In this document: piece after piece, positions 10,760-44,664 of the stretch
Layout: each line of letters opens with the position of its first letter
Position numbering within the stretch: the first letter of the stretch is position 1
Source of the DNA: Deltaproteobacteria bacterium
GTDB taxonomy: Bacteria > Myxococcota > B64-G9
Assembly: GCA_030622135.1 (NCBI GenBank)
Contig: JAUXGL010000002.1
Coordinates: forward strand, 24-64,023
DNA: 64,000 nucleotides
Direction: 5' to 3'
The notes under the pieces: generated by a model
Database searches by the model: none
Seen by the model: only the letters and a program-made list of their open reading frames with translations
What the model was told of the DNA's origin: nothing
Program-made: the position numbers and the translations under genes

Positions 10760-11040
10760 CGGTCACCTCAAGGGAAAACTACAAGATCAACCCCAATCTC
10801 CCACTGGTGCCCCTTCGTTTCGATATAACATATTGACTACCCAAAGGAACTTAATATACGCGGTGCCACTATACTGGTGAGATAATTTACTCGCGGTCCT
10901 CTCGCAAGTGTCCCTTTTTACTCGGGAGATTGGGATCGACCGGAAATGGGCTGGGAGATTATGGATCAACCCCCGATTGACAAATATGCTTGCCCGGGGT
11001 AGTGAAAATCGTTGTGGCTGCGGACCGTAAAGAAAGATTG

Positions 11041-11454
11041 ATGGAGCTGTTCAATCAGCGGGCTCCCATCGCCGAGACGTTTGGTATGAAGCTCTCCTTC
11101 GATGACGATGACCGCGCGAACGTCTCGCTTCCCTACAATGCCGCCCTGGATAACGCCATGGGGGGCGTTCACGGAGGGATCATCGCCACCCTTCTGGACA
11201 ATGCCGGTTGGTTCACCTGTGCCCTTGCCCGTGAAGGCGAGGGCTGGGTGGTCACCGCGGAGATGTCTTTCCACCTGTTCCGGCCCGTTTTGAAAGCGCA
11301 TCTGCTGGCCCGGGGAAGGCTCCTGAAATCCGGCAGCCGGCAGGACATCGCCGACATGCGCTGCTGGGACCAGGACAACAACCTGGTGGCCCATGCCACC
11401 GGGAGCTACGTCTACCTGGAGAACGTGCCCATCGAGAGGTCCCCCAAGCCATGA
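11041..11454 (+). CDS. PaaI-family hotdog-fold thioesterase
   Basis: The hotdog thioesterase motif GGVHGG(I)IATLLD is present. An RBS precedes the ATG at 11041, although the ORF track begins at 10990. Confidence 0.8.
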   Translation: MELFNQRAPIAETFGMKLSFDDDDRANVSLPYNAALDNAMGGVHGGIIATLLDNAGWFTCALAREGEGWVVTAEMSFHLFRPVLKAHLLARGRLLKSGSRQDIADMRCWDQDNNLVAHATGSYVYLENVPIERSPKP

Positions 11455-12215
11455 CGGCCGGATCCCAGGCTCTGGTCTCCGTCGTATCTCTCACCAAGAT
11501 ATTCAATGACCGCCAGCGCGGCCGGGAGGAGATTCGCGCCGTAGACGCGGTTTCCTTCGAAGCCCATGCGGGAGAGATCTTCGGGCTCCTGGGAGTCAAC
11601 GGCGCCGGCAAGACCACCACCCTGCGGCTTTTGGCCACCATGCTCAAGCCCACATCGGGGGAGGCCTCGGTCTGCGGCCACTCCATTTCGAAAGAGCCCC
11701 AGGCGGTCCGGCGCCGGATCGGCTTTATGTCCACGGCCACCAGCCTGTACGGACGATTGAGCGCCAAGGAGATGGTTACATACTTCGGGCGGCTCAACGG
11801 CATGAGCCGGGAGGCCATCGAGCAGCGGATCTTGGAGCTGTTCGACCTGTTCGGCATGAACGAGTTCCGGGACCGGCGTTGCGACAAGCTGTCAACGGGA
11901 ATGAAGCAGAAGGTCTCCATTGTCCGCACAGTTTTGCACGACCCCGAGGTGATGATCTTCGACGAGCCCACCGTCGGCCTGGACGTTCTCACCTCCCGCA
12001 CCATCGTGGACTTCGTAAAAGACTGCCGGACCCGGGGCAAATGCGTGCTTTTCTCCACCCACATCATGGAAGAGATGGAGAAGCTCTGCGACCGGGTGGG
12101 AGTGATCCACGACGGTAAGCTCCTGGCCTGCGAGCCGGTGGAGGCCCTGAAGTCCCGCACTCCCTCCGGCCGGGTGGAAGACGCGTTCGTCAAGCTGGTG
12201 GGAGAGCCGGCATGA
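11451..12215 (+). CDS. ABC transporter ATP-binding protein
   Basis: Walker A GVNGAGKTTT, the signature LSTGMKQK and Walker B IFDEPT are present. It overlaps the neighbouring genes. Confidence 0.9.
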   Translation: MTAGSQALVSVVSLTKIFNDRQRGREEIRAVDAVSFEAHAGEIFGLLGVNGAGKTTTLRLLATMLKPTSGEASVCGHSISKEPQAVRRRIGFMSTATSLYGRLSAKEMVTYFGRLNGMSREAIEQRILELFDLFGMNEFRDRRCDKLSTGMKQKVSIVRTVLHDPEVMIFDEPTVGLDVLTSRTIVDFVKDCRTRGKCVLFSTHIMEEMEKLCDRVGVIHDGKLLACEPVEALKSRTPSGRVEDAFVKLVGEPA

Positions 12216-13753
12216 GACTCGGCGCGATGTTCACAGCGCGGCTCCGCCGCAACCCAATGACCCGCGCAGTACTCTCGAAATTTGCGCGTGGCGCGCAAAT
12301 TTTGGCGGTTAGTAGTACAGTCTTTTGCAAGGAGCTCGTAGACGTCCTGCGCGACCGGCGCACCCTGATCTTCATGCTGGTCATCCCCACCGTCGCCATC
12401 CCCGTGCTCATGTGGGTGACCTCCGAGCTGATGACCCACTTCATGGAGAAGCTGGCCCGTGAGCAGGTGGACGTCCTGGTGCTCAACCCCGAAGCCGCGC
12501 CGGAACTGGTCGAGGAGGTCAAAAAGAGGGCCAACCCCCTGGGCCGGGCCCGGCGGGTGGCCGAGTTGCTGAAAGCGAAGGGCGTGGGCGAGAGCGAGCT
12601 GGCCATGACCAAGGGCGAGCCCCGGGCCTTCTTGCGGCTTCTGGAGAAAAAGGGCATCGACCCCGAGGAACTGGCCACAGAGCTCCGGGTCGCCGTTGAA
12701 GACTCCGACTTCAAACTCGAGCCCGGCGCCATCATCCAGAACGCCTTCCCCCCCAATTTCCGCCTGGTCACCGAATTGGATCCGCGGGATTACGACCATC
12801 CCGCAGAGCGGGAGCAAGTACTGCTGGAAGCCGTGCGCACCGACGAGATCGCCGCGGCCATCGAGTTCGCCGACGACGCATTGGAAAAGCTCGCATCCGG
12901 CGACTCTACCGAGATACGAGTTTACTACCTCGACGCCTCCGACCGCTCGAGCACGGCTTTGTCCGGCCTGCGGCGCATATTCAAATCCTTGGGCAAACAG
13001 ATGGTTGCGGAGCGGCTCCTTTCAAAGGAGCTTCCCGCCGGCTTCGCCAACCCGGTGAAGGTCCGTCCCGAGCGTCTCCCCGGCCCCGGCATGTTAGTCA
13101 AGTTCCTCTCGCAGATTCTTCCCTACATGATTTTGATCTTCGCTTTCATGGGAGCCATGTACCCGGCCATCGACCTGGGCGCGGGAGAAAAGGAGCGCGG
13201 CACTCTGGAGACGCTCCTGGTGGCGCCGGTGAGTCGGCTCTCCATCGTCCTGGGCAAGTTCGGCGTGATCCTGGTGGCCGCCCTGGTCTCCGCGGTCCTG
13301 GCCACCATCAGCCTCTCGGTGTCGTTGTATCTGGGCATCTTCTCCACCATCTCCCTGGTCAGCGGTGGCTCCTTCTCCTTCAGCATCCAAGAGGCCCTGG
13401 TTGCCCTGCTGATGATCGTCCCCATCAGCGGCATCTTCGCCGCCCTGCTCTTGGCCCTGTCCATCTTCGCCAAGAGCTTCAAGGAGGGCCAGTCCTACGC
13501 CAGCCCCCTGCAGATGGTCATCATCATGCCCGCCTTCGTCTCTTTCGTTCCCGGCGTCAAGCTGGACTGGCTAATGGCTTCCATCCCGGTAGTCAATGTC
13601 TCCCTGGCGCTGAAAGAAATCTTCACCGGCAACCTGGACCAGCACTGGGCCCACGTGGGCGTAATCTTCCTATCCACCAGCATCTTCGCCGGCCTGCTGC
13701 TCTGGTTCGCCACCTGGTGGTTCCAGCGCGAGCAGGTGCTGTTTAGGAGCTAA
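12212..13753 (+). CDS. ABC-2 type transporter permease (large periplasmic/cytoplasmic loop + 6 TM)
   Basis: One N-terminal TM is followed by a large soluble domain and a C-terminal ABC-2 permease-like TM bundle. It is translationally coupled to the ATPase. Confidence 0.7.
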   Translation: MRLGAMFTARLRRNPMTRAVLSKFARGAQILAVSSTVFCKELVDVLRDRRTLIFMLVIPTVAIPVLMWVTSELMTHFMEKLAREQVDVLVLNPEAAPELVEEVKKRANPLGRARRVAELLKAKGVGESELAMTKGEPRAFLRLLEKKGIDPEELATELRVAVEDSDFKLEPGAIIQNAFPPNFRLVTELDPRDYDHPAEREQVLLEAVRTDEIAAAIEFADDALEKLASGDSTEIRVYYLDASDRSSTALSGLRRIFKSLGKQMVAERLLSKELPAGFANPVKVRPERLPGPGMLVKFLSQILPYMILIFAFMGAMYPAIDLGAGEKERGTLETLLVAPVSRLSIVLGKFGVILVAALVSAVLATISLSVSLYLGIFSTISLVSGGSFSFSIQEALVALLMIVPISGIFAALLLALSIFAKSFKEGQSYASPLQMVIIMPAFVSFVPGVKLDWLMASIPVVNVSLALKEIFTGNLDQHWAHVGVIFLSTSIFAGLLLWFATWWFQREQVLFRS

Positions 13754-13897
13754 ACGGGGGACTTTCACCCCCCGCCCCCCCCGCTCATCCCGGCACGCGC
13801 TTGGCTCCCCTCCGCCTTGAAAAACATTTTGCCGGATCGGTTGATTTGTGCAACATTGGGGCCAACAGACGCAGTGCCAGCCAACCACAGGAGAGAC

Positions 13898-14140
13898 ATG
13901 CAGGGTAAAACCGTGTCGGAGCTGATTGGCGACGTTTTGTCCAGTTATCTTGGACCGAACACCGCCAAGACCGCCGTGAAGACCTTTTCTAAAAAGGAGT
14001 TGGGCCTATCACCGGAAAAACTGACCGCCACGAATGTGCCTAAGCTCATGGACGGCATGCGACCCATGTTACGGACGCTTCTGGGTGAAGACGTGACCGA
14101 AGTCCTGGTTGCGATTATTCAGCGCGAGGTGGGGCAATGA
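13898..14140 (+). CDS. Conserved 80-aa soluble protein, copy 1 of duplicated module
   Basis: MQGKTVSELIGDVLSSYLGPNTAK… is 100% identical at the protein level to copy 2, with only synonymous DNA differences. It overlaps the downstream membrane gene (ATGA). Confidence 0.65.
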   Translation: MQGKTVSELIGDVLSSYLGPNTAKTAVKTFSKKELGLSPEKLTATNVPKLMDGMRPMLRTLLGEDVTEVLVAIIQREVGQ

Positions 14141-14955
14141 AACTGCGTCTGTTGCTGGTGTTTCCGGTTCTGCTGACAATTGGGTACTTGCTGCTGGAGC
14201 TTTTTTTCGGAAAGGACCTATGGTTTGCATCTTCTGTAAAATATTTCATCACTTTCGGGGATGCGCTGGCTTGTCTGGGGTTTACTGCGGCGGCCCTTAG
14301 ATTCAAAGCCGGCGAGCATCTGCGCCGGGCGTGGTTGTTCATGGCCCTGTGTATGTTCACGTTCGTTTGCCTCCGATTCGTCGATGTATTTACGTTTGAT
14401 TCTGTATTTGGCTTGAGCGAGGACGTAAAGAATGCAATCCGAGGCGGCGTCAGCGTTTTGGCCAACATCTTCTGGGTTGTTGGCTTGTGGAAGTTGGCCA
14501 GAGTCATGCATATGACCGGCCTGGGTTTTGGTGTCTCTAAATGGGACCAGCGTCTGGTGCTTGGCCTCGGGATCCTGTTGGGGGTTACCTTTGGCGGCTC
14601 GTCGGTTGTAACCGGTGTGATCGCTGTTATGGACGGCAATCTTTTTGCTTTGAACTGGTTGGCGGCCGGGCTGGCGGATGTCATGGTCCTTTGCTTGATC
14701 GCACCTTTGTTTTTGACTGCTCTGGCCATGCGGGGTGGTTTGTTGGTTTGGCCCTGGGGGTTGCTGGTCGCCTGTTTGCTCGGGTGGCTCTTTGTCGACG
14801 CCTTTCAATCATTGGGCCAGATAGTCGATCTCGACCCTCTAGTCCAAAGGTGTACCATGATCACCTCTCGGACTTGGGCCTGTGCGTTTGGTTTCTCGGC
14901 CGGCATGGCTCAACGAATGATTTTGGGTAGACGCTTCACCGATAAAATCAAATGA
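14137..14955 (+). CDS. Polytopic membrane protein (about 8 TM), copy 1 of duplicated module
   Basis: A 272-aa hydrophobic ORF, roughly 70-75% identical to the paralog at 15251..16069. Confidence 0.65.
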   Translation: MKLRLLLVFPVLLTIGYLLLELFFGKDLWFASSVKYFITFGDALACLGFTAAALRFKAGEHLRRAWLFMALCMFTFVCLRFVDVFTFDSVFGLSEDVKNAIRGGVSVLANIFWVVGLWKLARVMHMTGLGFGVSKWDQRLVLGLGILLGVTFGGSSVVTGVIAVMDGNLFALNWLAAGLADVMVLCLIAPLFLTALAMRGGLLVWPWGLLVACLLGWLFVDAFQSLGQIVDLDPLVQRCTMITSRTWACAFGFSAGMAQRMILGRRFTDKIK

Positions 14956-15011
14956 TACTTTAGGTTTTGCACATAACGGCAGAGAAAGTGCAAGCTATCC
15001 ACTGGAGAGAC

Positions 15012-15254
15012 ATGCAAGGTAAAACCGTGTCGGAGCTGATTGGCGACGTTTTGTCCAGCTATCTTGGGCCGAACACCGCCAAGACCGCGGTGAAGACCTT
15101 TTCTAAAAAGGAGTTGGGCCTATCACCGGAAAAACTGACCGCCACGAATGTGCCTAAGCTCATGGACGGCATGCGACCCATGTTACGGACGCTCCTGGGT
15201 GAAGACGTGACCGAAGTCCTGGTTGCGATTATTCAGCGCGAGGTAGGACAATGA
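15012..15254 (+). CDS. Conserved 80-aa soluble protein, copy 2
   Basis: Its protein sequence is identical to copy 1. Confidence 0.65.
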   Translation: MQGKTVSELIGDVLSSYLGPNTAKTAVKTFSKKELGLSPEKLTATNVPKLMDGMRPMLRTLLGEDVTEVLVAIIQREVGQ

Positions 15255-16069
15255 AACTGTGTCTGTTGCTGGTGTTTTCCGTTCTGTTGACAATTGGGTA
15301 CTTGTTGATGGAGCTTTTTTTCGGAAAGGACCCGTGGTTTGCATTTTTTTCAGGATACTTCACCACTGTCGGTGATGCGCTGGCTTGTCTGGGGTATGCC
15401 GTGGCGGCCTTTAAATTCAAAGCCGGCGAGCATCTGCGCCGGGCGTGGCTTTTCTTGGCCCTGACTTTCTTCTTGTTCGTTTGCCTCCGATTCTTAGATC
15501 GATTTCTATTTGAATTGTTATTTGGCTTGACCGCGGGCGAAATCGATGTAGCCCTGGGTAGCTCCTGCGTCTTGGCCAACATCTTCTTGGCTATCGGCTT
15601 TTGGAAGTTGGCCAGAGTCATGCATATGACCGGCCTGGGCTTTGGTGTCTCTAAACGCAAACAGCGTCTGGTGCTCGCCGTCGGGATCCTGTTGGGGGTT
15701 ACCTTTGGCGGCTCGTCGGTTGTAACCGGTGTGATCGATGTTGTGTTCGGCGATTTTTATTCTTTGAACTGGGTTGCCTCCGGGCTGGCGGATGCCTTTT
15801 GCCTTTGTTTGATCGCACCTTTGTTTTTGACTGCTCTGGCCATGCGGGGTGGTTTGCTGGCTTGGCCCTGGGGACTGTTAACCGTAAGTGTGCTCGGTTG
15901 GCTCCTGGTCGATGCCTCTCAAGCATATGCTCTGGTAGTCGATCTCGACCCTATAACCCTGAGGTGTGTCAAAATCACGGCTCGGACCATGGCCTGTGCG
16001 TTTGGTTTCTCGGCCGGCATGGCTCAACGACTGGTTTTGGGTAAACGATTCACCGATAAAATCAAATGA
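15251..16069 (+). CDS. Polytopic membrane protein, copy 2
   Basis: A paralog of 14137..14955 with the same length, the same start-overlap architecture and the same C-terminal RFTDKIK. Confidence 0.65.
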   Translation: MKLCLLLVFSVLLTIGYLLMELFFGKDPWFAFFSGYFTTVGDALACLGYAVAAFKFKAGEHLRRAWLFLALTFFLFVCLRFLDRFLFELLFGLTAGEIDVALGSSCVLANIFLAIGFWKLARVMHMTGLGFGVSKRKQRLVLAVGILLGVTFGGSSVVTGVIDVVFGDFYSLNWVASGLADAFCLCLIAPLFLTALAMRGGLLAWPWGLLTVSVLGWLLVDASQAYALVVDLDPITLRCVKITARTMACAFGFSAGMAQRLVLGKRFTDKIK

Positions 16070-16217
16070 TACTTTAGGTTTTGCATGCACGGAGCGTCGG
16101 ACGGTTCTTGGCCGTCCTCATTGCGTTGTGGCTGGCTGCGCGGGCCCTTAGCCGGGTCGCTGACGGCTTGTTTGTCGGTTCCAGACGCGCTAGGTTCCAC
16201 CTGCGTTTTTTGGAGGC

Positions 16218-16775
16218 TTGACGATGCAAAAGGTTGAAGTCTGGTTGGTTCGGCACGGGCAGACCGATCACAACGCCCAGGGTCGGCTGAGTGGTTGGAC
16301 CGATGCGGCCTTGACCGAATTGGGACGCGATCAAGCCCGCTGGCTTAGAAAGCACATCGAAGCGGAGTCATTCGATAGCGTCTGGTCTTCCGACTTGGGT
16401 CGAGCCAGGGACACGGCCCAATTGGCCTGGGGTTCTTCGGTAGCTACCGATCGTCGTCTGCGGGAGATTCATTTCGGCGATCTGGAGGGGGAGACTTTCC
16501 AGGGCCTGGATAAAAAAAACCAGGACGCCCTGTTGACCTTCAGCGGCTTTAGTGCTCCGGGTGGTGAAAGCGTCGAACAGTTGGAAGAAAGAGTAACGGA
16601 GTTTATGGATTCTCTGGCGCCGGGCCGGCATCTCCTCTTCACCCACGGCGGCGTTATCCGCTGCGTGATGCATCGGTTGCTCAACACCCAGTGTTTCTTA
16701 CCCAACGGCTCCCTGGTGGCGGTCGACTGGATCCCGAGAAAGCTGATCTTCGTTCGTGAGAACGAATTAAGGTAA
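16218..16775 (+). CDS. Histidine phosphatase family protein (phosphoglycerate mutase / alpha-ribazole phosphatase-like)
   Basis: The RHGQTDHN catalytic motif (VWLVRHGQTDHNAQGRLSGWTD) is present. Confidence 0.8.
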   Translation: MTMQKVEVWLVRHGQTDHNAQGRLSGWTDAALTELGRDQARWLRKHIEAESFDSVWSSDLGRARDTAQLAWGSSVATDRRLREIHFGDLEGETFQGLDKKNQDALLTFSGFSAPGGESVEQLEERVTEFMDSLAPGRHLLFTHGGVIRCVMHRLLNTQCFLPNGSLVAVDWIPRKLIFVRENELR

Positions 16776-16860: not shown

Positions 16861-17430
16861 TCAGGGTTTCTTCAGCACGGCCAGGTAGTTGCGAAACTCC
16901 GCCTTCAGCGCGGTGTACTCTCGGTGATCCACCTGGAGCTCCGAGGCGATCTGACGGATCTCGTTGTCCTCCACCGAGGATATGGACAAGTCGGCGGCGG
17001 AGACGGCGAACAGGCAGCGGAGCAGGCCCAGCTTTTGCTCGCGCGTGGCCAGCTGGCCGAACTCCCGGGTAACCAAGAAGTTCTCGGTGCCGCCGAAAAG
17101 CTTTGCGTGGGTCTTGGCCATCTGCACCACCAGGATGGCCAGCTCCGCGTCGAGACCTCCCTGCTCCAACACGATGCGCTCCATGGCCCGGGTCTCTTCC
17201 TCGCTGATGTTCAAGTCGGCATGGGCGACACGAGACAAGAGATACGCGAACGAGGCGATGTACTTGGCCCGCTCGGGTTCCATCCGGTCGAGCTTTTGTA
17301 CTATCTGACGGACAGATTCCGTATCCGCGGACGGTTCTTCCTCTTTCTTCTTCTTGGAAAGGCCCAGAAAATCGAGTATGGACATGTCTCCCTCCGGCGG
17401 CAGTATCGCGGACATAGATGTGATTGACAA
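16861..17430 (-). CDS. TerB-like (tellurite-resistance TerB family) protein
   Basis: It is an all-helical protein with paired acidic motifs typical of TerB/DUF533-like domains. The true start may be the internal Met of MSILDFLGL. Confidence 0.5.
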   Translation of the reverse strand: MSITSMSAILPPEGDMSILDFLGLSKKKKEEEPSADTESVRQIVQKLDRMEPERAKYIASFAYLLSRVAHADLNISEEETRAMERIVLEQGGLDAELAILVVQMAKTHAKLFGGTENFLVTREFGQLATREQKLGLLRCLFAVSAADLSISSVEDNEIRQIASELQVDHREYTALKAEFRNYLAVLKKP

Positions 17431-17455
17431 GCCCGTTCCTTCCTCAATATAAGGG
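17350..17455. repeat. Direct repeat copy A (about 95 bp, spans the 5' end and upstream region of the TerB gene)
   Basis: It aligns at about 85% identity with 20012..20115 (…aagcccagaaaatcgagtatggacatgtctcc…gatgtgattgacaagccc…). Confidence 0.85.
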
Positions 17456-17647
17456 CGTTGTCAAGTATTTTGACCTGTTCGTTGACTTGTTCTAGGCAGC
17501 AGACTCCAAAAGCTGACTCCAAAAGCGTGGGAAATGGCGAACAGGCGCTGGCCGAACTCAGAAGAGCTGACGAGATACTCAAAACCAGCAAATGATACCT
17601 AAACAACTTGACAACGTCCCATTTCCGTACTTTCCGTCCCTTCGGTC

Positions 17648-18484
17648 GTGACCGTGACTGGGAAACCGGTGAAACCTGCTGTGCACACTTCCGATCACTC
17701 CACACACCCTGAAACCTGTGCATACTGCGGAGCCGTCCTGGATGAGAATTACTACTTCTGTCTTTCCTGTGCGACACCGTATAAAAGCGTTGAGTCTGTT
17801 CTGCCGCCTGCGCGCCCGGCGCCGCCGACCACGGGTTTCTTGATCGCCAAGAAAGCGCCCCATGTGATGCCCCTTTTCTGGACGTATGTGGCGGTCGTCG
17901 TGGGAACTGCACTGTTTAGCTTCTTCGTATTCGGAGAGCGACAACTGGAGCTTGTGCTGATTTTTCAAACGCTTGCGGTTTTTGTCACCACTTGTGTTTT
18001 TGCCAAGATACACTGGTCGTCACTGATGGTGCAGTTTAGGCGTTTCGGCTTTCTCAAAAAAGAAGCTGTGCTGGGGTTGATGGCTCTGGTGCCGTTGTTG
18101 GCCGTCAATTATTATATATACCACAGTTGGCTAGTGGATGGGTGGGGCGTCAAGGAGACGTTGCCAATTCTCCGCCTGCGCGACTCTGGCCTGGGAGAGC
18201 CTGCTTTGATCCTGCTTTTCTGTGTCTTCCCTGCTGTCACCGAGGAGATCGCATTCCGTGGGCTCGTCCAGCACTGGCTACAGATCGCCGTATCTCCGTT
18301 CTACGCGACGGCGCTGGCGTCGCTCCTCTTCACTGCACTGCATTTTTCAGTTTTCAGCGCGCCATACATCTTCGTCTTGGGAATGGTACTCGGCTGGGTG
18401 AAGCGGGAAACCAACAGCCTCTATCCATCCATGGCGATGCATTTCCTTCATAATCTGGTCGTTATTGATTTTTTTTCACACTGA
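17648..18484 (+). CDS. CPBP-family intramembrane metalloprotease (CAAX protease/Abi family) with N-terminal zinc-ribbon
   Basis: The CPBP motifs EEIAFRG…, FTALHF and HFLHN are present. The N-terminus has CAYCGAVLDENYYFCLSCATPY (CxxC…CxxC), and the start codon is GTG. Confidence 0.75.
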   Translation: MTVTGKPVKPAVHTSDHSTHPETCAYCGAVLDENYYFCLSCATPYKSVESVLPPARPAPPTTGFLIAKKAPHVMPLFWTYVAVVVGTALFSFFVFGERQLELVLIFQTLAVFVTTCVFAKIHWSSLMVQFRRFGFLKKEAVLGLMALVPLLAVNYYIYHSWLVDGWGVKETLPILRLRDSGLGEPALILLFCVFPAVTEEIAFRGLVQHWLQIAVSPFYATALASLLFTALHFSVFSAPYIFVLGMVLGWVKRETNSLYPSMAMHFLHNLVVIDFFSH

Positions 18485-18529
18485 TGATAATTCAATTTCC
18501 GTTATACATATGGAAGGAGGTGATTCATC

Positions 18530-19096
18530 ATGGACTTCGGAGTGTATCTGATTGCTAGTGTAATCTGCGGAATCATCGCAGCCGTAATCGCTTCTGGCAA
18601 GGGGAGAAACGGCTTGGGTTGGTTTTTTGGAGGATTCTTCCTGGGAATCGTCGGCATCGTCATCGTGGCCGTCATTCCCAACCTGAAGCAGGAAAAGGCC
18701 CGGTGGGAGGAGGATGACATCGAGCAGCACCGCCTGCGCGAGCGAATGAAACAGGAAAAAATTAAGAACGAGTCGTTTCGCGGTCACGCGGCCGGACGTC
18801 TCGATGCCCACGACGGTGCTCTCGGCATGGATACCCGCTCGATTCAAGGCCCACCTCCAACACCCGGTATGCTGACAGAGGGGCTTCAGAGATCGGGGCC
18901 TCCGCCAAACCCGTCAGAGGCCATCTGGTATTACGACCTCAACGGAGAAACCCGTGGGCCCGTATCGGAGACAGATATCAAGGCGATGCTTCGGTCCAGG
19001 CAAATCGGGGGCACTACGATACTGTGGTCCGAGAGTATGAGTGAGTGGACGCCTGCAAAACAGATTGAGACGTTTCGCTCCGTGGCAGGTTCATGA
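18530..19096 (+). CDS. Membrane protein (2 TM) with C-terminal GYF-like/DUF4339-type domain
   Basis: It has N-terminal TM helices and a C-terminal AIWYYDLNGETRGPVSETDIKAMLRSRQI…WSESMSEWTPAKQIETF, which resembles the GYF-like fold. Confidence 0.5.
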   Translation: MDFGVYLIASVICGIIAAVIASGKGRNGLGWFFGGFFLGIVGIVIVAVIPNLKQEKARWEEDDIEQHRLRERMKQEKIKNESFRGHAAGRLDAHDGALGMDTRSIQGPPPTPGMLTEGLQRSGPPPNPSEAIWYYDLNGETRGPVSETDIKAMLRSRQIGGTTILWSESMSEWTPAKQIETFRSVAGS

Positions 19097-19995
19097 ACCA
19101 AAAAACCGAGGGCACCGCAGCTCTCGACGGCATCCTCGATGGCAAGATCCCAGACCGGGACGAAGTCGAGGATCGCCTCCGGGAATGGATCAGCTTTGCG
19201 GCATCAATAAATCTGCAGTTCAATCTCGAAATAGACGGCAACTCGTTCAATCTCCTCGCCGATAACAAACCGTTCCCGGCAAAGGACATAGAACCGGACT
19301 TGACCAGTACGGTTTCGAGTGCCTTAAGCGAGCTTCTCAGGATCTTCAACAAGGAAGAGAGGCGGAGGGTTTTCTCGACAATTCGGAGCATTGAATATAG
19401 GAAGGGCGTGGAGACTCAAACCCTTTTTACAGTCGGGCCCGACGGGGAGATCCACACCCGATCGAGAACCGCCGAAGCCCAAACTACCGCTGCGCCTCGT
19501 CCGTATACCCGCAAGGAGAAAATCCGCACCGGAGTCATCGTTGGCGCTTCCGCCCTGGTGGCTTTCGCAATCTCCGCACTCTTCGTAGATTACGGTTCTC
19601 TATTCAACCGCACCTTCGAGCGAGTCAAAACCTTTCGTGCCGCCGGGCTGGAAGTCGAAAACAAAATTTTCCACGCTTACTTTACCGTCGAGAAGAAAAC
19701 CGCAGTAGGCGGGGGGAAAACGCTGCTGCTCGTATTGAAGCGAGGCGAGGCGTTCCCGAAAGCTGACTCTGACTTCGAGCAACTGATCACCGACTCACCG
19801 GGCTCCATTTCCGCTCGTGTGACCATCGAGGCGCTCGCGCGCGGCTACGTACGGTGTGAGTTTTACGACCAGCAGGGCAAATTCCTGAGTTTCTACATGC
19901 AAAGGATCTCTGGTCTCAGGCAAAATCAGACCATTGAGCTAAACATACCGCTTCCCAGCCAAAAACGCCCTGAGCGCTTGATTATCACTTACTAG
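19093..19995 (+). CDS. Hypothetical protein with one internal TM helix
   Basis: It is translationally coupled to the previous gene (ATGA). I recognise no family. Confidence 0.5.
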   Translation: MNQKTEGTAALDGILDGKIPDRDEVEDRLREWISFAASINLQFNLEIDGNSFNLLADNKPFPAKDIEPDLTSTVSSALSELLRIFNKEERRRVFSTIRSIEYRKGVETQTLFTVGPDGEIHTRSRTAEAQTTAAPRPYTRKEKIRTGVIVGASALVAFAISALFVDYGSLFNRTFERVKTFRAAGLEVENKIFHAYFTVEKKTAVGGGKTLLLVLKRGEAFPKADSDFEQLITDSPGSISARVTIEALARGYVRCEFYDQQGKFLSFYMQRISGLRQNQTIELNIPLPSQKRPERLIITY

Positions 19996-20011
19996 AAACC
20001 ATCTCTCTTTT

Positions 20012-20115
20012 TTCTTCTTCAAGCCCAGAAAATCGAGTATGGACATGTCTCCCCCCGGCGACAGTATCCATAACGCAGATGTGATTGACAAGCCCACCAC
20101 TTCCTTCATATAAGG
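20012..20115. repeat. Direct repeat copy B; contains a relic of the TerB 5' end (…GGDMSILDFLGLKKKKE…) on the minus strand
   Basis: It aligns with copy A. The minus-strand translation reproduces the TerB N-terminal peptide and then diverges. Confidence 0.85.
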
Positions 20116-20122
20116 ATGTGAC

Positions 20123-21442
20123 ATGACTTTGAAACTGGGAATCCGCCGGGAGGACAAGAGCGTCTGGGAGCGCCGGGTACCGCTCACTCCGGATCACGTG
20201 CGCCGGCTGGTCAAAGACGGCGTCCCCGTCGTCGTGCAGCCCTCCAAAACCCGTGTATTTCCCGATGAGGCCTACCGGGAGGCCGGGGCGGAGATCGAAG
20301 AAGATCTCTCCTCCTGCCCGGTGGTGCTGGCGGTCAAGGAGATCCCCTCCAGTCTCTTCGTGTCCGATCACGTCTACGTGTGCTTCGCTCACGTGATCAA
20401 GGGCCAGCCCTACAACATGCCCATGCTGCGCGAACTGCTGGACTCCGGCGGTACTCTGATCGACTACGAGAAGGTGACCGACGGGCAGGGGCGGCGGCTG
20501 ATCTTCTTCGGGCGTCATGCCGGTCTGGCCGGAATGATGGACTCCCTGTGGGCGTTGGGGCGGAGGCTCGAGACCGAGGGGTTCGACACCCCCTTCTCCG
20601 CGCTGCGACCGACTCACTGCTACCAGAACCTGGACGAGATCAAGCAAGCCGTTCGGGAGGTCGGCTTGAAAATTGCCGATGCGGGGCTCCCCCCGGCGCT
20701 CACCCCGATGGTTTTCGGGTTCGCCGGTTATGGCAACGTGTCCCTGGGCGCCCAGGAGATCTTCGATTTACTCCCCCACCAGGAAGTGGCCCCCGAGCAG
20801 TTGCTCAAGCTCCCCAAGACCAATAACCGGCAGGAGCTGGTCAAGGTGGTTTTCAAGGAAAAGCACATGGTGCAGCGGGCGGATCCGAAGGCGCCCTTCG
20901 ATCTCCAGGAGTACTACGACCACCCCGAACGCTATAAGCCCGACTTCGACCAGTACGTGCCCTTGCTGACCGTGATGATCAACTGCATCTACTGGGCGCC
21001 TCAGTACCCCCGGTTGATCACCAAGACTCGGCTGAGAGAGCTATACGCAGGGCAGTCCCCGCCCCGGCTCCGGGTGATCGGAGACGTCAGCTGCGACGTG
21101 GAGGGGGCGGTGGAGTGCACGCTCAAGTGCACCCAGCCGGGAGAGCCGGTGTTCGTGTACCGGGTGCAAGACGACGCCGCCGTCATGGGCGTGAAGGGTG
21201 AAGGGCCGGTGGTGCTCGCCGTGGACAACCTTCCCTGCGAGCTGCCGATGGAGTCATCGCAGGACTTCGGTGACGCGCTCATGCCCTTCATACCCGCCCT
21301 CGTGGAGGTCGACTTTACTCAGCCGTTCGAAAAGCTGGATCTGCCCGTCCCCATCAAGAGGGCGACGATCGCCCACCGGGGGGTCCTGACGCCCGATTAC
21401 GGTTACCTGTCGAGTCATATCGACAAAGCCCAAGGAGATTGA
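20123..21442 (+). CDS. Lysine-ketoglutarate reductase / saccharopine dehydrogenase (L-lysine-forming), AlaDH/PNT-fold
   Basis: The LKR-type N-terminus GIRREDKSVWERRVPLTP is present, followed by a Rossmann fold GFAGYGNVSLGA. Confidence 0.75.
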   Translation: MTLKLGIRREDKSVWERRVPLTPDHVRRLVKDGVPVVVQPSKTRVFPDEAYREAGAEIEEDLSSCPVVLAVKEIPSSLFVSDHVYVCFAHVIKGQPYNMPMLRELLDSGGTLIDYEKVTDGQGRRLIFFGRHAGLAGMMDSLWALGRRLETEGFDTPFSALRPTHCYQNLDEIKQAVREVGLKIADAGLPPALTPMVFGFAGYGNVSLGAQEIFDLLPHQEVAPEQLLKLPKTNNRQELVKVVFKEKHMVQRADPKAPFDLQEYYDHPERYKPDFDQYVPLLTVMINCIYWAPQYPRLITKTRLRELYAGQSPPRLRVIGDVSCDVEGAVECTLKCTQPGEPVFVYRVQDDAAVMGVKGEGPVVLAVDNLPCELPMESSQDFGDALMPFIPALVEVDFTQPFEKLDLPVPIKRATIAHRGVLTPDYGYLSSHIDKAQGD

Positions 21443-37531: not shown

Positions 37532-38653
37532 TCATGGCCGGTCCTTTCTTTTCGTCCTCTTTCCTCGCGAAGAACCTTGTTTCCGTAGCGGCGCTACTTT
37601 GCCAAGGATTTCCCGATAGTACTGTGTGTCACGGAGTCTCCGGGCTATAGACGCTGTAGCGAAAAGATCCTCGGGCCTGAAGTGCCCAGCGCGGAAATCT
37701 TCCACGAATCTGTGCTCACGCTCCGTGTAGTTGAACACATGACGATCAAAGAACTTCCTGACCGTCCACTTCATTTCTTCGACCGATGGTACGGGGAGAT
37801 CACGTGGGACAACACTAAGCAGTTCAGACTTGACGTCAGCCTCGGTGTAGGAGCCGATCGCGTTCCCCCGGAAGTACTCGAACTTCCCGATCCGGGTCAT
37901 GCCAAACAGGATCACGAGATCGCGGAATAACTTGAGATCGAACTTGATCTCTCCATCTAGAACCTCTCGGGACAGCAAGTAGATGTCGAATAGATGGCGG
38001 ATCTTCCGTTTGGTCAGTAGTCCAATGTGGTCGGGAAAATCCAGGCGTTCCTTTGCATCGACCATGGCTATCGCCTTGCTGGCGTATAGCTCCTCTTCCT
38101 TGAGCGTGACGACCTTGAACGTAGGGGCGACCTCATCTTGCACGATCGGCCATTCTCGCGCTACCGTACCCAGTACGGAGTCCCCATAGCGGTAGGAGAT
38201 GTCGAGTTCGATGCTGTCCCTGCGTCTGTACATAGATCGATAGGTCAACTCGTACTGCACGAATCGATCGGCTTTCACGGATGTGATCTTGAATCCCATC
38301 CCCAGATTCCGAGCGATTGCCTCCAGTATATCCTTGTCCCTGTTCTTCCGTGTGCTCACCTCCCGCTTGCCCTTCTTCCCCAGATTCCGGTTAGTGACGA
38401 AGTCCAAGTCAAGGTCGGTCGAGAACCTGTACATGTCACGGTACAGGAAGACAATCGCCGAGCCTCCCATCAAAGCGAAATCCCTGCCTATCTCAGAGAC
38501 CGTAATTGCACGCAGCACGCGTGTTAGCCAAAGCACCTTCTCCCCCGTCGGGAACTCCACTTGGTGCTTTCGCGCCCAGGCCTCGATGAGATCCTGACCT
38601 ATCGAACCCGGCTCGGCCGATGCTGATGCCATTTTCTTACTTGGCTTAGTCAT
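37532..38653 (-). CDS. AbiEii/AbiGii-type nucleotidyltransferase toxin (type IV TA / abortive infection)
   Basis: The NTase motif GGSAI…DLDLDF and a DUF1814-like C-terminal region are present. The local GC is lower. Confidence 0.75.
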   Translation of the reverse strand: MTKPSKKMASASAEPGSIGQDLIEAWARKHQVEFPTGEKVLWLTRVLRAITVSEIGRDFALMGGSAIVFLYRDMYRFSTDLDLDFVTNRNLGKKGKREVSTRKNRDKDILEAIARNLGMGFKITSVKADRFVQYELTYRSMYRRRDSIELDISYRYGDSVLGTVAREWPIVQDEVAPTFKVVTLKEEELYASKAIAMVDAKERLDFPDHIGLLTKRKIRHLFDIYLLSREVLDGEIKFDLKLFRDLVILFGMTRIGKFEYFRGNAIGSYTEADVKSELLSVVPRDLPVPSVEEMKWTVRKFFDRHVFNYTEREHRFVEDFRAGHFRPEDLFATASIARRLRDTQYYREILGKVAPLRKQGSSRGKRTKRKDRP

Positions 38654-39536
38654 CGAACAGTCCTTCCGGCACGTGCAGATTCCATTGCCGATTCAGTGTT
38701 CCACCCTCCCCGCGCGCGAATTTCGCAGGTGTTTTCGGCAGGTAGGGCCGCAGAGAATCGATTTCGTTTTCAGCAACTTTCCATTTCTCAGCATATCGCT
38801 GCACGACCAACCCAACCCTTGAAACAAGCGAGGGCGTTCGGTATTGCTTCACATACTCAATCATGCGGCTACCGCGGACTCCTTCGGCTCGATTCAGAGC
38901 ATGGGCAACGTTCTCCCATCCCTGTGCGTACTTCGGGCGATGGATAGCGTCAATCAGCGTCCGCTCCAGATCCGTGATGCGAACAGAACCCCGGCCGTGA
39001 TGCCTGGTGACAATACCTGTTTCTTTCGGTAACGGTGTTTTGACAAAACGAATATTGAATTCTCCCATAGGCCGCTGCTTCCGCTTGGATTTCGAGACCA
39101 CATAGTACTCCGTTAACCTGCCGTAGCGCGATAGCCCGTACAGAAGAAGAGCTGTACCGTAACCGAAGACAACTTCCTCACCATAAACCGCCTGGACGGC
39201 CTCAATAGGATCGGTAATGAATGTGCCATTTTTCCCGTCCGCCACAACATACAGCCCTCGTGGTCCGTTCTTGAGCCGCTGCAATACGCCCTTTTGTTGG
39301 AGACGGCGCAGACCGTAGTCCGGCGATACATCGGTGTATTGTTTTGCTAAACGAGCCACCTCCGTGGAAGAAATGATGTCCCTTTTCCGCAGGGCTCTCA
39401 CTAGTGCCTTCCAGGCGGTTTTGCTGCGGCCGTTCCTGCTTCTTTTCTTCACGGCATGCCTTTCCGCCTCGCGCAATTGTCCGGGTTGAGCAACTTTTGC
39501 ACAACGACATGTGCAAAAGTCGCAATTGGCGGACAC
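38646..39536 (-). CDS. AbiEi-family antitoxin / transcriptional regulator
   Basis: It is upstream of and overlaps the NTase gene, with a wHTH-like N-terminus and an AbiEi-like C-terminus. Confidence 0.65.
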   Translation of the reverse strand: MSANCDFCTCRCAKVAQPGQLREAERHAVKKRSRNGRSKTAWKALVRALRKRDIISSTEVARLAKQYTDVSPDYGLRRLQQKGVLQRLKNGPRGLYVVADGKNGTFITDPIEAVQAVYGEEVVFGYGTALLLYGLSRYGRLTEYYVVSKSKRKQRPMGEFNIRFVKTPLPKETGIVTRHHGRGSVRITDLERTLIDAIHRPKYAQGWENVAHALNRAEGVRGSRMIEYVKQYRTPSLVSRVGLVVQRYAEKWKVAENEIDSLRPYLPKTPAKFARGEGGTLNRQWNLHVPEGLFDD

Positions 39537-39861
39537 GCATCCCTGTGTTCTCGCGGTTCAGGAACAGACTGACGCATCACCTCGGTGGCCTGCTCCATCA
39601 GCTTGCTCGGTTCGAATTTCGTTTTCATCGTCAAACCTTCTCCAGGAGATCAAGAGCGTCCTGCGGGCGGAGCCTTTACCCTTGCTCCCTGACTGAGCAG
39701 CTACCGTCGAAGAGAAGAACAATGTCAGTACCTCTGTCTGTAAGATTCTCTAGGAAATTTCAGAATGATTGGATTGTAAGCAGAAAGTGCCTTTCATTCA
39801 AGAGAGAAAGTAGGACGCCATCTGATTATATAAACGTGTACCCACCTTCGGGTCTTACCGA

Positions 39862-41631
39862 TCAGATCTGTAGTTCGCGGACGGTTTCTTCCCGCGGCAC
39901 CCCGTCCTCGTCCCAGCCGCGCAGGCGGTAGTAGGGGTCCAGCATCTCGTCCAGCTTGACCAGGCGATTGCGGGAGGCGCCTTCCTCCAGTTTCTCGTTG
40001 AGAAACCGCGGAGGCAGGCTGTCGTCCTTTCTGGTGAGGCCGGCCTTGGTGTTGAAGAGTCTCTCCAGGGTATAGATGCGCTTGCCGATGGTGATGAGTT
40101 CCTCTTCGGTGAAGTCGAGCCCGGTGACCAGGTTGAGCATCTTTTTGAAGGTGTCGACGCCCATGGCGAACTGTAAAAAACGGCACAGGCCGAGCGAGTC
40201 CACGCAGGCGGAGATGTCCTGGAGCAGGACGACGATCTCCGCCTTGCCCGCCGTGGAGAACCGGTCCATGAAGCAGGGTTGCCCCAGGATCTCGGGGCCG
40301 ATGACATAAGCGCGCATGTGGCAACCTCCCCGGTTGGAGGTCGCGTAGGAAAGCGCCTGCCCCTGGACGCCGCGGGGATCGTAGGCGGGGAGCTCCAGGC
40401 CCTTGACCTGCATGGACAGCTCCGGTCGCTGGTACTTCTCGGAAAGCCGCTTGGAGCCCAGGGCCAGCTCGCCGCCGAAGCCGCGCCGGTAGGCGATGTC
40501 CTCTACCAGCCGCCGCACCCGCCCGGCGTCTCCCCAGGAGATCTTTTCGGGCAGCAATCCCAGCTCGGACAGCTCCATGGCGCATCCGATGGTGTTGCCG
40601 CAGGAGATGGTGTCCAGCCCCAGCTCGTTGCAGCGGTAGTTGGCTTCGGTGATGGACACCAGGTCGCTTACCAAAAGCTGAGCGCCGAAGGCCCAGACCG
40701 ACTCGTATTCCGGCCCCTCGCCCGCTTTATTGGGGGTCCGGGTCGTTCGCCCGCAGGCGATGGGACACCGGTAGCACGCGCTTTTGGCCTTCAGGATGGT
40801 CTCGGCGATCTTCTCGCCGCTGGTCCCCTCGGCGTCGTTGAAAACGCCTCGCCGGAAGTTCTCGGTGGGGTACATCCCGTGGGCGTTGATCACGTTGACC
40901 AGCACCGACGTCCCCAGGACTTGCAGCGACTTCCCGGTCACCGGGTTCTTGTCGACCAGCCGGTCGAGGAAGGCACTGAGCTCTCCCAGCCCTTCCGGGT
41001 CGGCGACTACGACATTCTGGGTTCCGTTGACCACCACCGCCTTGAGATTTTTCGAACCCATGACCGCGCCCAGGCCGCCCCGGCCGGCGGCCCGGTCCTT
41101 GTCGTTCATCACCGCCGCGAACAACACCTGGTTCTCCCCCGCGGGACCGATGCTGGCCACGGACGCCTTGGAAGAGGTCTCGTCCAGAAGCGCCCGCTTG
41201 GTCGCCGGGGTGTCCTTTCCCCAGAGATGGGCCGCGTCTTTCACTTCGATCCCGTCGTCGGTGACATGTAAATACCTGGGCTGGTCCGCCTTGCCGGTGA
41301 TGATGAGTCCGTCCAGGCCGGTTCGTTTCAGGGCCGCCCCGAAGGTGCCCCCCGAGCTGGAATCGCAGATGGTCGTGGTCAAGGGGGAGCGGGAGACGAT
41401 CTGGTAGCGGCCGCCGGTCAGCACCGCCCCGGTCAAGGGACCGGTGAGGAAGATCAAGGCGTTTTCTGGGGAAAGCGGATCGGTCTTCTCGTCGCAGAGC
41501 TCGGTGTACAGCTTTACCCCCAGGCCTCTTCCGCCCAGATAGCGTCTCCTGAGATCGTCATCGATCTCCAGATCCTCCTGCCGGCCCGTCGAAAGGTCGA
41601 TCTTTCTTATCTTTCCCATCCAGCCGTGCAT
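39862..41631 (-). CDS. Tungsten-type aldehyde:ferredoxin oxidoreductase (AOR family)
   Basis: AOR N- and C-terminal domain motifs are present (GKIRKIDLSTG…, DxxGxC Cys ligands CYRCPIACGR). The start was chosen at MHGWMGKI because an AAGAGG RBS precedes it; the ORF track extends to 41799. Confidence 0.85.
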   Translation of the reverse strand: MHGWMGKIRKIDLSTGRQEDLEIDDDLRRRYLGGRGLGVKLYTELCDEKTDPLSPENALIFLTGPLTGAVLTGGRYQIVSRSPLTTTICDSSSGGTFGAALKRTGLDGLIITGKADQPRYLHVTDDGIEVKDAAHLWGKDTPATKRALLDETSSKASVASIGPAGENQVLFAAVMNDKDRAAGRGGLGAVMGSKNLKAVVVNGTQNVVVADPEGLGELSAFLDRLVDKNPVTGKSLQVLGTSVLVNVINAHGMYPTENFRRGVFNDAEGTSGEKIAETILKAKSACYRCPIACGRTTRTPNKAGEGPEYESVWAFGAQLLVSDLVSITEANYRCNELGLDTISCGNTIGCAMELSELGLLPEKISWGDAGRVRRLVEDIAYRRGFGGELALGSKRLSEKYQRPELSMQVKGLELPAYDPRGVQGQALSYATSNRGGCHMRAYVIGPEILGQPCFMDRFSTAGKAEIVVLLQDISACVDSLGLCRFLQFAMGVDTFKKMLNLVTGLDFTEEELITIGKRIYTLERLFNTKAGLTRKDDSLPPRFLNEKLEEGASRNRLVKLDEMLDPYYRLRGWDEDGVPREETVRELQI

Positions 41632-43927: not shown

Positions 43928-44548
43928 ATGGTCAGGCAATTGCATGAAATCCAGGGGATGCAGGTGGTCGCGCTTCACGAGGGGCGCATCATGGGTTCTA
44001 TCCAAAAGGTATACCTGAACCCGGCCAAGAAGCGGGTCTCCGGCATGGTGGTTCGGGAGCCCGGCTTCGGCGGACAGGAAAGCTGGATCGACATCCGCGA
44101 CATCGAGAAGGTGGGCGAGAACGTGATCTTCGTTCCTCGCGCGGGAGCTTGCAAGGCCAAGAGCCCCGTGGGCCGGAGCCTCAAGAACCTGATGGGCATG
44201 CAGGTGACCGCCAAGGATGGCAAGATCCTCGGGTCGCTGGTGGACGTGGAGATCGACGAAGAGTGGTTGGTGGTGGAGATCGGCCTGTCGGAAGGTCGCC
44301 TGGTGAGCATCGATCCCCGCCACGCCGTCTTCGGCCAGGACGCTATCCTGCTCCGCGCCGGCGCGTCCTCCGACGTTCGCGAAGCCCCCCGCCACAAGAC
44401 CGGCTTTCTGGCCCGGGTCTTCGGGATCGAAGCCGTCGCGGAAACCGCCGACGCCATCTCCCGGGCGGAAAAGTCCACCACCACGGTCGCTCCGGCCAAG
44501 CCCCCCAACAAGCGGAAAAAGAAGAAAGTCCTCCGCCGCAAGCGCTGA
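43928..44548 (+). CDS. PRC-barrel domain protein (tandem paralog 2) with Lys/Arg-rich tail
   Basis: It has the same architecture and motifs as the preceding gene. Confidence 0.6.
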   Translation: MVRQLHEIQGMQVVALHEGRIMGSIQKVYLNPAKKRVSGMVVREPGFGGQESWIDIRDIEKVGENVIFVPRAGACKAKSPVGRSLKNLMGMQVTAKDGKILGSLVDVEIDEEWLVVEIGLSEGRLVSIDPRHAVFGQDAILLRAGASSDVREAPRHKTGFLARVFGIEAVAETADAISRAEKSTTTVAPAKPPNKRKKKKVLRRKR

Positions 44549-44664
44549 CGACTACAGCTCAGTGGGTCAAGGCTTCGATGCTGTGCTCCTTTTGCGCCTG
44601 CGTCCAGCGCAGCGCAACCATTCGGGTGTTTTAGCACATAAGCCTTCATCGTGAAGTGGGAGTA

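Follow-up and report, generated by a model that had tools for sequence, protein, structure and literature searches.

Introduction

By definition, a STAC domain is a bundle of four helices, arranged as two hairpins that a loop of about nine residues connects; its stand-alone members are 60 to 90 residues long and carry the motif LGPx(x)A between the first and second helices (PMC4834066, PMC5715377). It was defined through its association with transport proteins, and in the CbrA and CrbS kinases it joins SLC5 transporter domains to kinase domains (PMC4834066, PMC5715377). The structural prototype is Af1502 of Archaeoglobus fulgidus (PDB 5A1Q), whose translation is coupled to that of Af1503, an output-less receptor (PMC4834066). 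Cryo-electron microscopy of CbrA has shown the STAC domain docked beneath the membrane domain, where a cytoplasmic pocket receives the tips of helices 3 and 4 (PMC13022988). Here we describe a tandemly duplicated two-gene cassette on the plus strand of a 64,000-nucleotide (nt) stretch (the window) of a Deltaproteobacteria bacterium of the Myxococcota (GenBank assembly GCA_030622135.1, contig JAUXGL010000002.1, positions 24 to 64,023). Each copy encodes an 80-residue protein, S, that probably belongs to the STAC family and is held invariant by purifying selection, and a predicted eight-transmembrane (8-TM) protein, M, that has diverged between the copies.

The cassette shares the predicted two-hairpin architecture of S with the STAC domains of CbrA, CrbS/MxtR and RpuS and differs from the described systems in several respects. 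In SLC5/STAC kinases the STAC domain is internal, lying between a 13-TM SLC5 transporter and a PAS/kinase region, whereas S is a separate protein; M has no relationship to SLC5, and the cassette has no kinase gene beside it. Compared to Af1502/Af1503, the membrane partner is an 8-TM polytopic protein without a HAMP or extracellular domain, the gene order is reversed, with S first, and the lineage is Myxococcota rather than archaeal. Sequence similarity is weak and is seen at the profile-profile level only. The closest known systems for M include the seven-transmembrane (7TM) receptor fold of G protein-coupled receptors (GPCRs) and bacterial 7TM/8TM receptor modules such as 7TMR-DISM, MASE1 and MHYT.

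Results

Structure and duplication of the cassette

Base-by-base comparison detected a head-to-tail tandem repeat of a 1106-nt unit at 13866-14971 and 14980-16085. In the first copy, a 32-nt leader (13866-13897) with a ribosome-binding site, GGAGAG, just 5' of the ATG was followed by S1 (13898-14140; MQGK...), by M1 (14137-14955; 272 residues), whose start overlaps the S1 stop in an ATGA, and by a 16-nt tail (14956-14971) that ends the unit. The second copy had the same arrangement, with a leader carrying the same ribosome-binding site (14980-15011), S2 (15012-15254), M2 (15251-16069; 272 residues, also with an ATGA overlap) and a tail (16070-16085). Identity between the copies was 78% in the leader (7/32 differences), 97.1% in S, 83.5% in M and 100% in the tail (16/16). 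S1 and S2 differed at 7 of 243 nt, all of them third positions and all synonymous, and the two proteins were 100% identical. M1 and M2 aligned without insertions or deletions and had an amino acid identity of 71.1%. A repeat search returned a 300-nt block (13866-14165 and 14980-15279) with 95% identity and a spacing of 1114. Outside the limits of the repeat, identity was at the random level (~25%), with ~23% upstream of the leader at 13866 and ~26% past the tail at 14971.

The open reading frames (ORFs), the pairwise comparison and the repeat search thus agreed with a preliminary description of this DNA, which had reported a tandem two-gene cassette with translationally coupled genes, an identical small protein with synonymous changes only (about 97% nucleotide identity) and a membrane partner at 70 to 75% identity. 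The low-GC patch noted there was also observed, with a GC content of 0.53 at 14-16 kb versus about 0.60-0.63 in most of the window. The window shared 99.93% identity with a contig of a JGI metagenome. The cassette duplication was also present in a strain variant (L008; 98% identical) that came from another metagenome sample, indicating that the duplication is not an assembly artefact.

Divergence between the copies

Synonymous (dS) and nonsynonymous (dN) divergence and their ratio (omega), a check proposed in the preliminary description, were determined for both genes by the Nei-Gojobori method. For the S copies, dS was 0.126 (7 changes in 60.3 sites) and dN was 0 (0 in 179.7 sites), giving an omega of 0, and the absence of nonsynonymous change was significant (Fisher p=4.6e-5). 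For the M copies, dS was 0.185 and dN was 0.187, giving an omega of 1.01. The dS values of S and M were not different (Fisher p=0.54), indicating that both genes date from a single duplication of the whole unit. Comparison of S2 of the window with the strain variant added three further differences, again all synonymous. A slower rate for S was also observed across the family: in 19 S-M pairs taken from other genomes, identity averaged 46% for S and 35% for M, S was the more conserved partner in 159 of 171 comparisons, and the identities of the two proteins co-varied (r=0.79). Overall, these results indicated that the invariance of S is explained by purifying selection on the translated protein.

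The preliminary description had set gene conversion beside strong purifying selection as an explanation for the identity of the S copies. Conversion that kept S identical while M escaped is now highly improbable. S1 and S2 still differ at seven synonymous sites, and dS is not lower in S than in M. The leader that touches the S start is 22% diverged, which makes homogenisation restricted exactly to the S frame implausible. Furthermore, all 10 changes in S, counting paralogues and strains together, are synonymous, which is the mark of selection and not of homogenisation. One patch in M is in favour of conversion. Between the window and the strain variant there were 21 nt differences in M1 and 5 in M2, and M1 of the variant (61-879 of L008) carried the M2 sequence at 5 or 6 clustered M1 differences within 30 nt (codons 227-237), where M1 of the window is unlike the other three sequences. 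This patch could reflect a short tract converted between paralogues in the strain variant; elsewhere in M, the strain-versus-paralogue site patterns alone do not separate conversion from lineage-specific mutation. Conversion is therefore disfavoured and is not needed for the pattern. An untranslated conserved element, a further explanation considered for the identity of S, was ruled out by the synonymous-only changes, by protein-level conservation among genomes that differ widely in GC content and by the lack of an Rfam match in a scan of 13500-16400.

The small protein and the STAC family

The AlphaFold2 model of S (pLDDT 93.5) was a four-helix bundle of two hairpins (residues 6-18/20-35 and 44-62/64-79) connected by an eight-residue loop (36-43). 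No signal peptide or TM segment was present in S, consistent with a cytoplasmic protein. The motif L18-G19-P20-N-T-A23, the best-conserved part of the family, was located exactly at the turn between helices 1 and 2. Y17, L18, G19, P20 and A23 were invariant in the 15 closest relatives, G19, P56, L58 and G63 were at least 90% conserved across 131 family sequences, and the pattern LG[PA]x(x)A was found in 75 of 149 relatives. Scans of S with Pfam, NCBIfam and PADLOC detected nothing. S has the four-helix, two-hairpin architecture of a STAC domain, the LGPx(x)A motif at the expected turn, a length within the range for stand-alone members and a coupled membrane protein, although the type of partner is unlike Af1503 or SLC5.

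A profile of the 131 S sequences was compared with an alignment of STAC blocks from 14 SLC5/STAC kinases (RpuS of the pNGR234b megaplasmid and 13 others from plasmid records). Using hhalign, a match with a score of 24.2 (P 7e-4) was obtained over 62 columns, covering the four helices in the expected register. Controls scored lower, with a mean of 9.5 (standard deviation, 1.8; maximum, 16.9) for 150 column permutations and a score of 12.6 for the reversed block. With a longer kinase alignment, which included TM13 and PAS flanks, the matches of S were still confined to the STAC block.

Several findings weigh against this assignment. The hhalign probability for the match with the STAC block was just 26%, and with the longer alignment hairpin 1 of S was paired with STAC hairpin 2 and vice versa (P 0.005). 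The swapped match suggested that the STAC hairpins resemble each other, which weakens the argument from register. HMMER profiles of S reached neither Af1502 nor any SLC5/STAC kinase, and no STAC match was found among PDB sequences; a failure of searches of this type was likewise reported by the STAC authors for Af1502 itself. The Foldseek search proposed in the preliminary description was run with the S model against the PDB and gave nothing significant (best E value, 1.2). STAC homology of S is not proven by these data. We infer from the architecture, the motif and the profile match that S is probably a genuine member of the family. The protein that the preliminary description had left nameless thus most likely has described homologues, and the family has a name and a function that is unresolved in the literature (PMC7918813, PMC5715377).

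Both hairpins of the kinase STAC domains examined (L045-L058) carried a turn of the form hydrophobic-G-x-x-(S)A. The shared turn hints that STAC itself may be an internal duplication of a helical hairpin.

Distribution of S and M

When 1.84 billion representatives were searched exhaustively with a profile, S relatives were identified in 181 clusters at 50% identity. The best 150 of these 181 were small stand-alone proteins or short fragments, with a single fusion among them. This was a 281-residue protein from a metagenome fragment (P0086) in which the C-lobe of a Ser/Thr kinase (residues 5-118) was followed by an S domain (201-274) with the sequences YLGPHTAK and RPMLRTF. The broad 131-sequence profile gave 63 matches in 5.8 billion proteins, all of them small and none with Pfam domains.

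A scan of GTDB genomes detected S at 31 loci, all in Myxococcota (Polyangia, Anaeromyxobacter, Nannocystaceae, Haliangiales and Chondromyces apiculatus DSM 436). In 19 of the 31 loci, and in additional metagenome loci, M came directly after S, and the two genes often overlapped by 4 nt. Genes for remote M-like 8-TM proteins were also located behind divergent S genes (hhalign P 2e-4 and 2e-3). The neighbourhoods of the S-M pairs were otherwise unrelated and included a CHAT protease, radical-SAM/SPASM, MFS/RND, a glycosidase and TetR/MatE. S without a recognisable M was found in 11 GTDB loci; inspection by eye of the neighbours indicated an HDOD-like protein, a MacB-type ABC transporter (L030) or a nearby V4R+STAS-like protein. 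M without S was found at two loci (L001 and L003), and no hidden STAC-like domain was detected in the Ser/Thr kinases located nearby. The source names of some M homologues pointed to Thermoanaerobaculia too.

Arrays with a single S gene and older M paralogues were observed in other Myxococcota, as S-M-M (L017, 8248-9911), with M copies that were 42% identical, and as M-S-M (L028, 7073-9028), with 49% identity. The upstream M gene of the second array was split over two frames and may be frameshifted. An apparent fusion of M to GDT1 (L060) was rejected as a frameshifted M running into the next gene.

These loci also bear on whether S could instead be unrelated to STAC and serve M as a four-helix subunit or chaperone specific to this lineage, acting, for example, in insertion or stability, with its invariance reflecting a tight structural fit and not signalling. 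A subunit of this type is decidedly unlikely. The LGPxxA motif lies exactly at the turn from helix 1 to helix 2, the central loop is of typical STAC length, Af1502 was the best of 48,164 chains, and hhalign scored the match far higher than the permuted and reversed controls. Furthermore, an S domain has been fused to a Ser/Thr kinase, and S also occurs without M near what appear to be signalling proteins.

The membrane protein

The AlphaFold2 model of M, based on a 65-sequence alignment (66 homologues were found), had a pLDDT of 91.7 and eight long helices, which agrees with the 8-TM protein of the preliminary description. Arg- and Lys-rich loops were present at residues 54-64, 122-138 and 198-202, and both ends of the protein were positively charged. 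The positive-inside rule consequently predicted an 8-TM protein with cytoplasmic N and C termini.

The positions of the differences between M1 and M2 were examined with respect to this topology, taking as the outer half the 12 residues before and the 12 residues after each predicted periplasmic turn, of which there are four. Differences were found at 45 of 100 outer residues and at 34 of 172 residues elsewhere (p=1.5e-5). Family-wide column conservation followed the same division, with a mean of 0.39 for outer residues versus 0.62 elsewhere. Omega was 1.5 for the outer half and 0.7 for the inner half, and neither value was significantly unlike 1. The proposal that the membrane partner is free to diversify thus held as near-neutral change overall, with the qualification that the differences are mostly in the predicted outer halves.

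The cytoplasmic loop motifs were the same in both copies, namely, KAGEHLRRAWLF, WKLARVMHMTGLGFGVSK, ...LTALAMRGGLL and WPWGLL, with one V/A difference, at residue 204, between the last two. Nine residues that are invariant in the family (A65, N110, D181, P190, G200, W205, W217, D221 and A255) were kept in M1 and M2. Both M copies look functional because these motifs and residues have been retained. Residues 57-84 of M1, which follow TM2 (ERGDyLRRAW...D), weakly resembled residues 198-225, which follow TM6 (MRGGlLxWPWGLL...D; hhalign P 0.019), and this resemblance weakly suggested an ancient 4+4 TM internal duplication.

Scans of M1 and M2 with Pfam, NCBIfam and PADLOC found no family, and a Pfam scan of 65 relatives found no domain, only subthreshold noise, so that the lack of a named family for the membrane protein was borne out. 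M is therefore an uncharacterised family, with a predicted generic 7TM-like fold. Two named families were considered and rejected. For the PnuC/NMN transporter (PF04973), no Pfam match exceeded the gathering threshold. For the CPBP/Abi protease-immunity family (PF02517), none of the 65 M-family members matched and the EExxxR, FxxxH and HxxxB motifs were lacking; the His residues of M1 were found only within GEHLRR and MHM.

On this evidence, M could be a transporter or channel for small solutes or ions whose flux is regulated by S, with paralogues that differ in substrate. The definition of STAC through transport proteins is consistent with such a role (PMC4834066, PMC5715377). N110, D181 and D221, which are polar and invariant, fall inside predicted TM helices; PnuC/NMN was the sole recurring subthreshold Pfam match in the family (7/65; best E value, 0.023); and one S gene without M lies beside the MacB-type ABC transporter. 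A transporter is nevertheless unlikely, and the best reading of M is an output-less membrane sensor (or transporter) that has S as a constant adaptor.

Flanking genes

Upstream of the cassette, Pfam and NCBIfam matches confirmed the co-directional genes of the preliminary description, a hotdog thioesterase (10990-11454), an ABC ATPase (11451-12215) and an ABC-2 permease (12212-13753), all on the plus strand. These genes are treated as neighbours of the cassette only. The permease is separated from S1 by 144 nt. No sigma-70-like promoter or convincing terminator was found between the operon and the cassette, and a G/C-rich hairpin 3' of the permease stop showed no excess stability over shuffled sequence (z 0.37). 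The permease matched the NCBIfam model for ABC permease/CPBP fusions (NF041647) with 366.5 bits, below the 435-bit cutoff, over profile positions 6-400 of 636; a full fusion was rejected, as the CPBP half is absent.

This neighbourhood raised the possibility that the adjacent exporter, which would be of a bacteriocin or lipid-export type, has the cassette as its module for immunity or self-protection, with the M proteins as diversifying immunity proteins. Immunity genes typically encode duplicated, diverging multi-TM proteins, and the M copies are of this kind. The cassette is co-directional with the ABC-2 exporter, whose permease resembles ABC permease/CPBP fusions, there is a CPBP (Rce1-like) gene 1.6 kb downstream, L061 also has one close to its pair, and one homologous pair (L009) comes after a radical-SAM/SPASM/PqqD cluster. 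The comparative data made this explanation very unlikely. The thioesterase/ABC arrangement was in none of about 40 related loci. GC at third codon positions (GC3) was 0.60-0.65 in the cassette versus 0.77-0.84 in the thioesterase/ABC genes, a difference of about 0.2. M has neither a Pfam CPBP match nor CPBP motifs, neither a gene for a toxin or precursor nor a PADLOC match was found, and S, which lacks a signal peptide, looks like a cytoplasmic signalling domain. The exporter link drawn in the preliminary description, for which a test of neighbourhood conservation had been proposed, was therefore not upheld.

A separate, true CPBP gene is located at 17648-18484, past the cassette and 3.9 kb downstream of the permease. 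The strain variant lacks 17408-20129, a stretch with this CPBP/Rce1-like gene, a GYF_2 gene and a 300-residue ORF. A 114-nt direct repeat (17341-17454 and 20005-20115; 83% identity) brackets the missing stretch and suggests deletion or insertion through recombination between the repeats. Other low-GC patches were observed at 38001-40000 (0.54) and 44001-46000 (0.46), compared to about 0.61, and a 564-residue ORF on the minus strand (44665-46359) was located in the second of these.

Discussion

The duplication, the selection on S and the recurrent pairing of S with M indicated a constant protein with a variable membrane partner. We consider it somewhat probable that the cassette is a two-part membrane signalling (or transport control) module, in which a constant, STAC-like cytoplasmic adaptor serves an 8-TM protein with no output of its own. 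S and M would be made together through translational coupling, and M would lie in the inner membrane with both ends in the cytoplasm and without its own output domain. Both hairpin turns of S lie at one end of the bundle and carry the two motifs that are conserved best, LGPxxA and RPMLRTLLG. Taking the CbrA STAC domain as an analogy, we infer that S may dock by this end on the conserved cytoplasmic loops of M and may report or modulate the conformation of M toward a cytoplasmic partner. The occurrence of an S domain at the C terminus of a Ser/Thr kinase fragment provides a link to signalling.

The divergence between the copies would then reflect a single tandem duplication of the whole S-M unit (dS about 0.13-0.19). 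After duplication, S would have been frozen, as both copies fit the same cytoplasmic face of M and the same downstream partner. Change in M would have been concentrated in the half that faces the periplasm, around a conserved polar site within the membrane formed by N110, D181 and D221. The outcome would be two modules with the same output and probably different input specificities. A constant component with diversifying membrane partners had been proposed in the preliminary description, and this part of the proposal was supported by the clustering of differences in the outer half and by the identical cytoplasmic loops; its association with the exporter was not.

A number of observations count against a signalling module of this form. 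No conserved output partner was found, and the loci that have S without M, or M without S, depart from a strict pairing. The topology of M rests on the positive-inside rule and DSSP helices and not on model coordinates or experiment. The outer-half omega above 1 is not significant (p about 0.2), and relaxed constraint explains it as well as adaptive diversification. Removing the STAC domain from CbrA or CrbS in Pseudomonas fluorescens had no visible phenotype (PMC5715377).

The pairing of a STAC protein with an 8-TM family and the accompanying paralogue pattern were not found in the literature searched, a search that did not include the original STAC paper (Korycinski et al. 2015). More broadly, Myxococcota, and some Acidobacteriota, could have an undescribed class of output-less, GPCR-like 8-TM receptors that signal through a separate STAC adaptor to partners such as Hanks-type kinases, with paralogue arrays that diversify the ligand-facing side and share an invariant adaptor. 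This generalisation is speculative and rather doubtful at present. If true, it would represent a modular architecture of many receptors and one transducer, and STAC would gain a clear functional role for the first time.

The description of the STAC domain dates from 2015, and its role is still termed elusive; in CbrA and CrbS the domain is buried in large multidomain kinases. A separate, highly constrained STAC protein with a small output-less membrane protein would, if the assignment is true, be a cleaner setting in which to study STAC function, and natural paralogue pairs have already split the constant side from the variable side. Many Myxococcota have the S and M families, among them the cultured Chondromyces apiculatus DSM 436 and Anaeromyxobacter. 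The cassette would also provide a first functional handle on a membrane family that lacks a Pfam or NCBIfam model.

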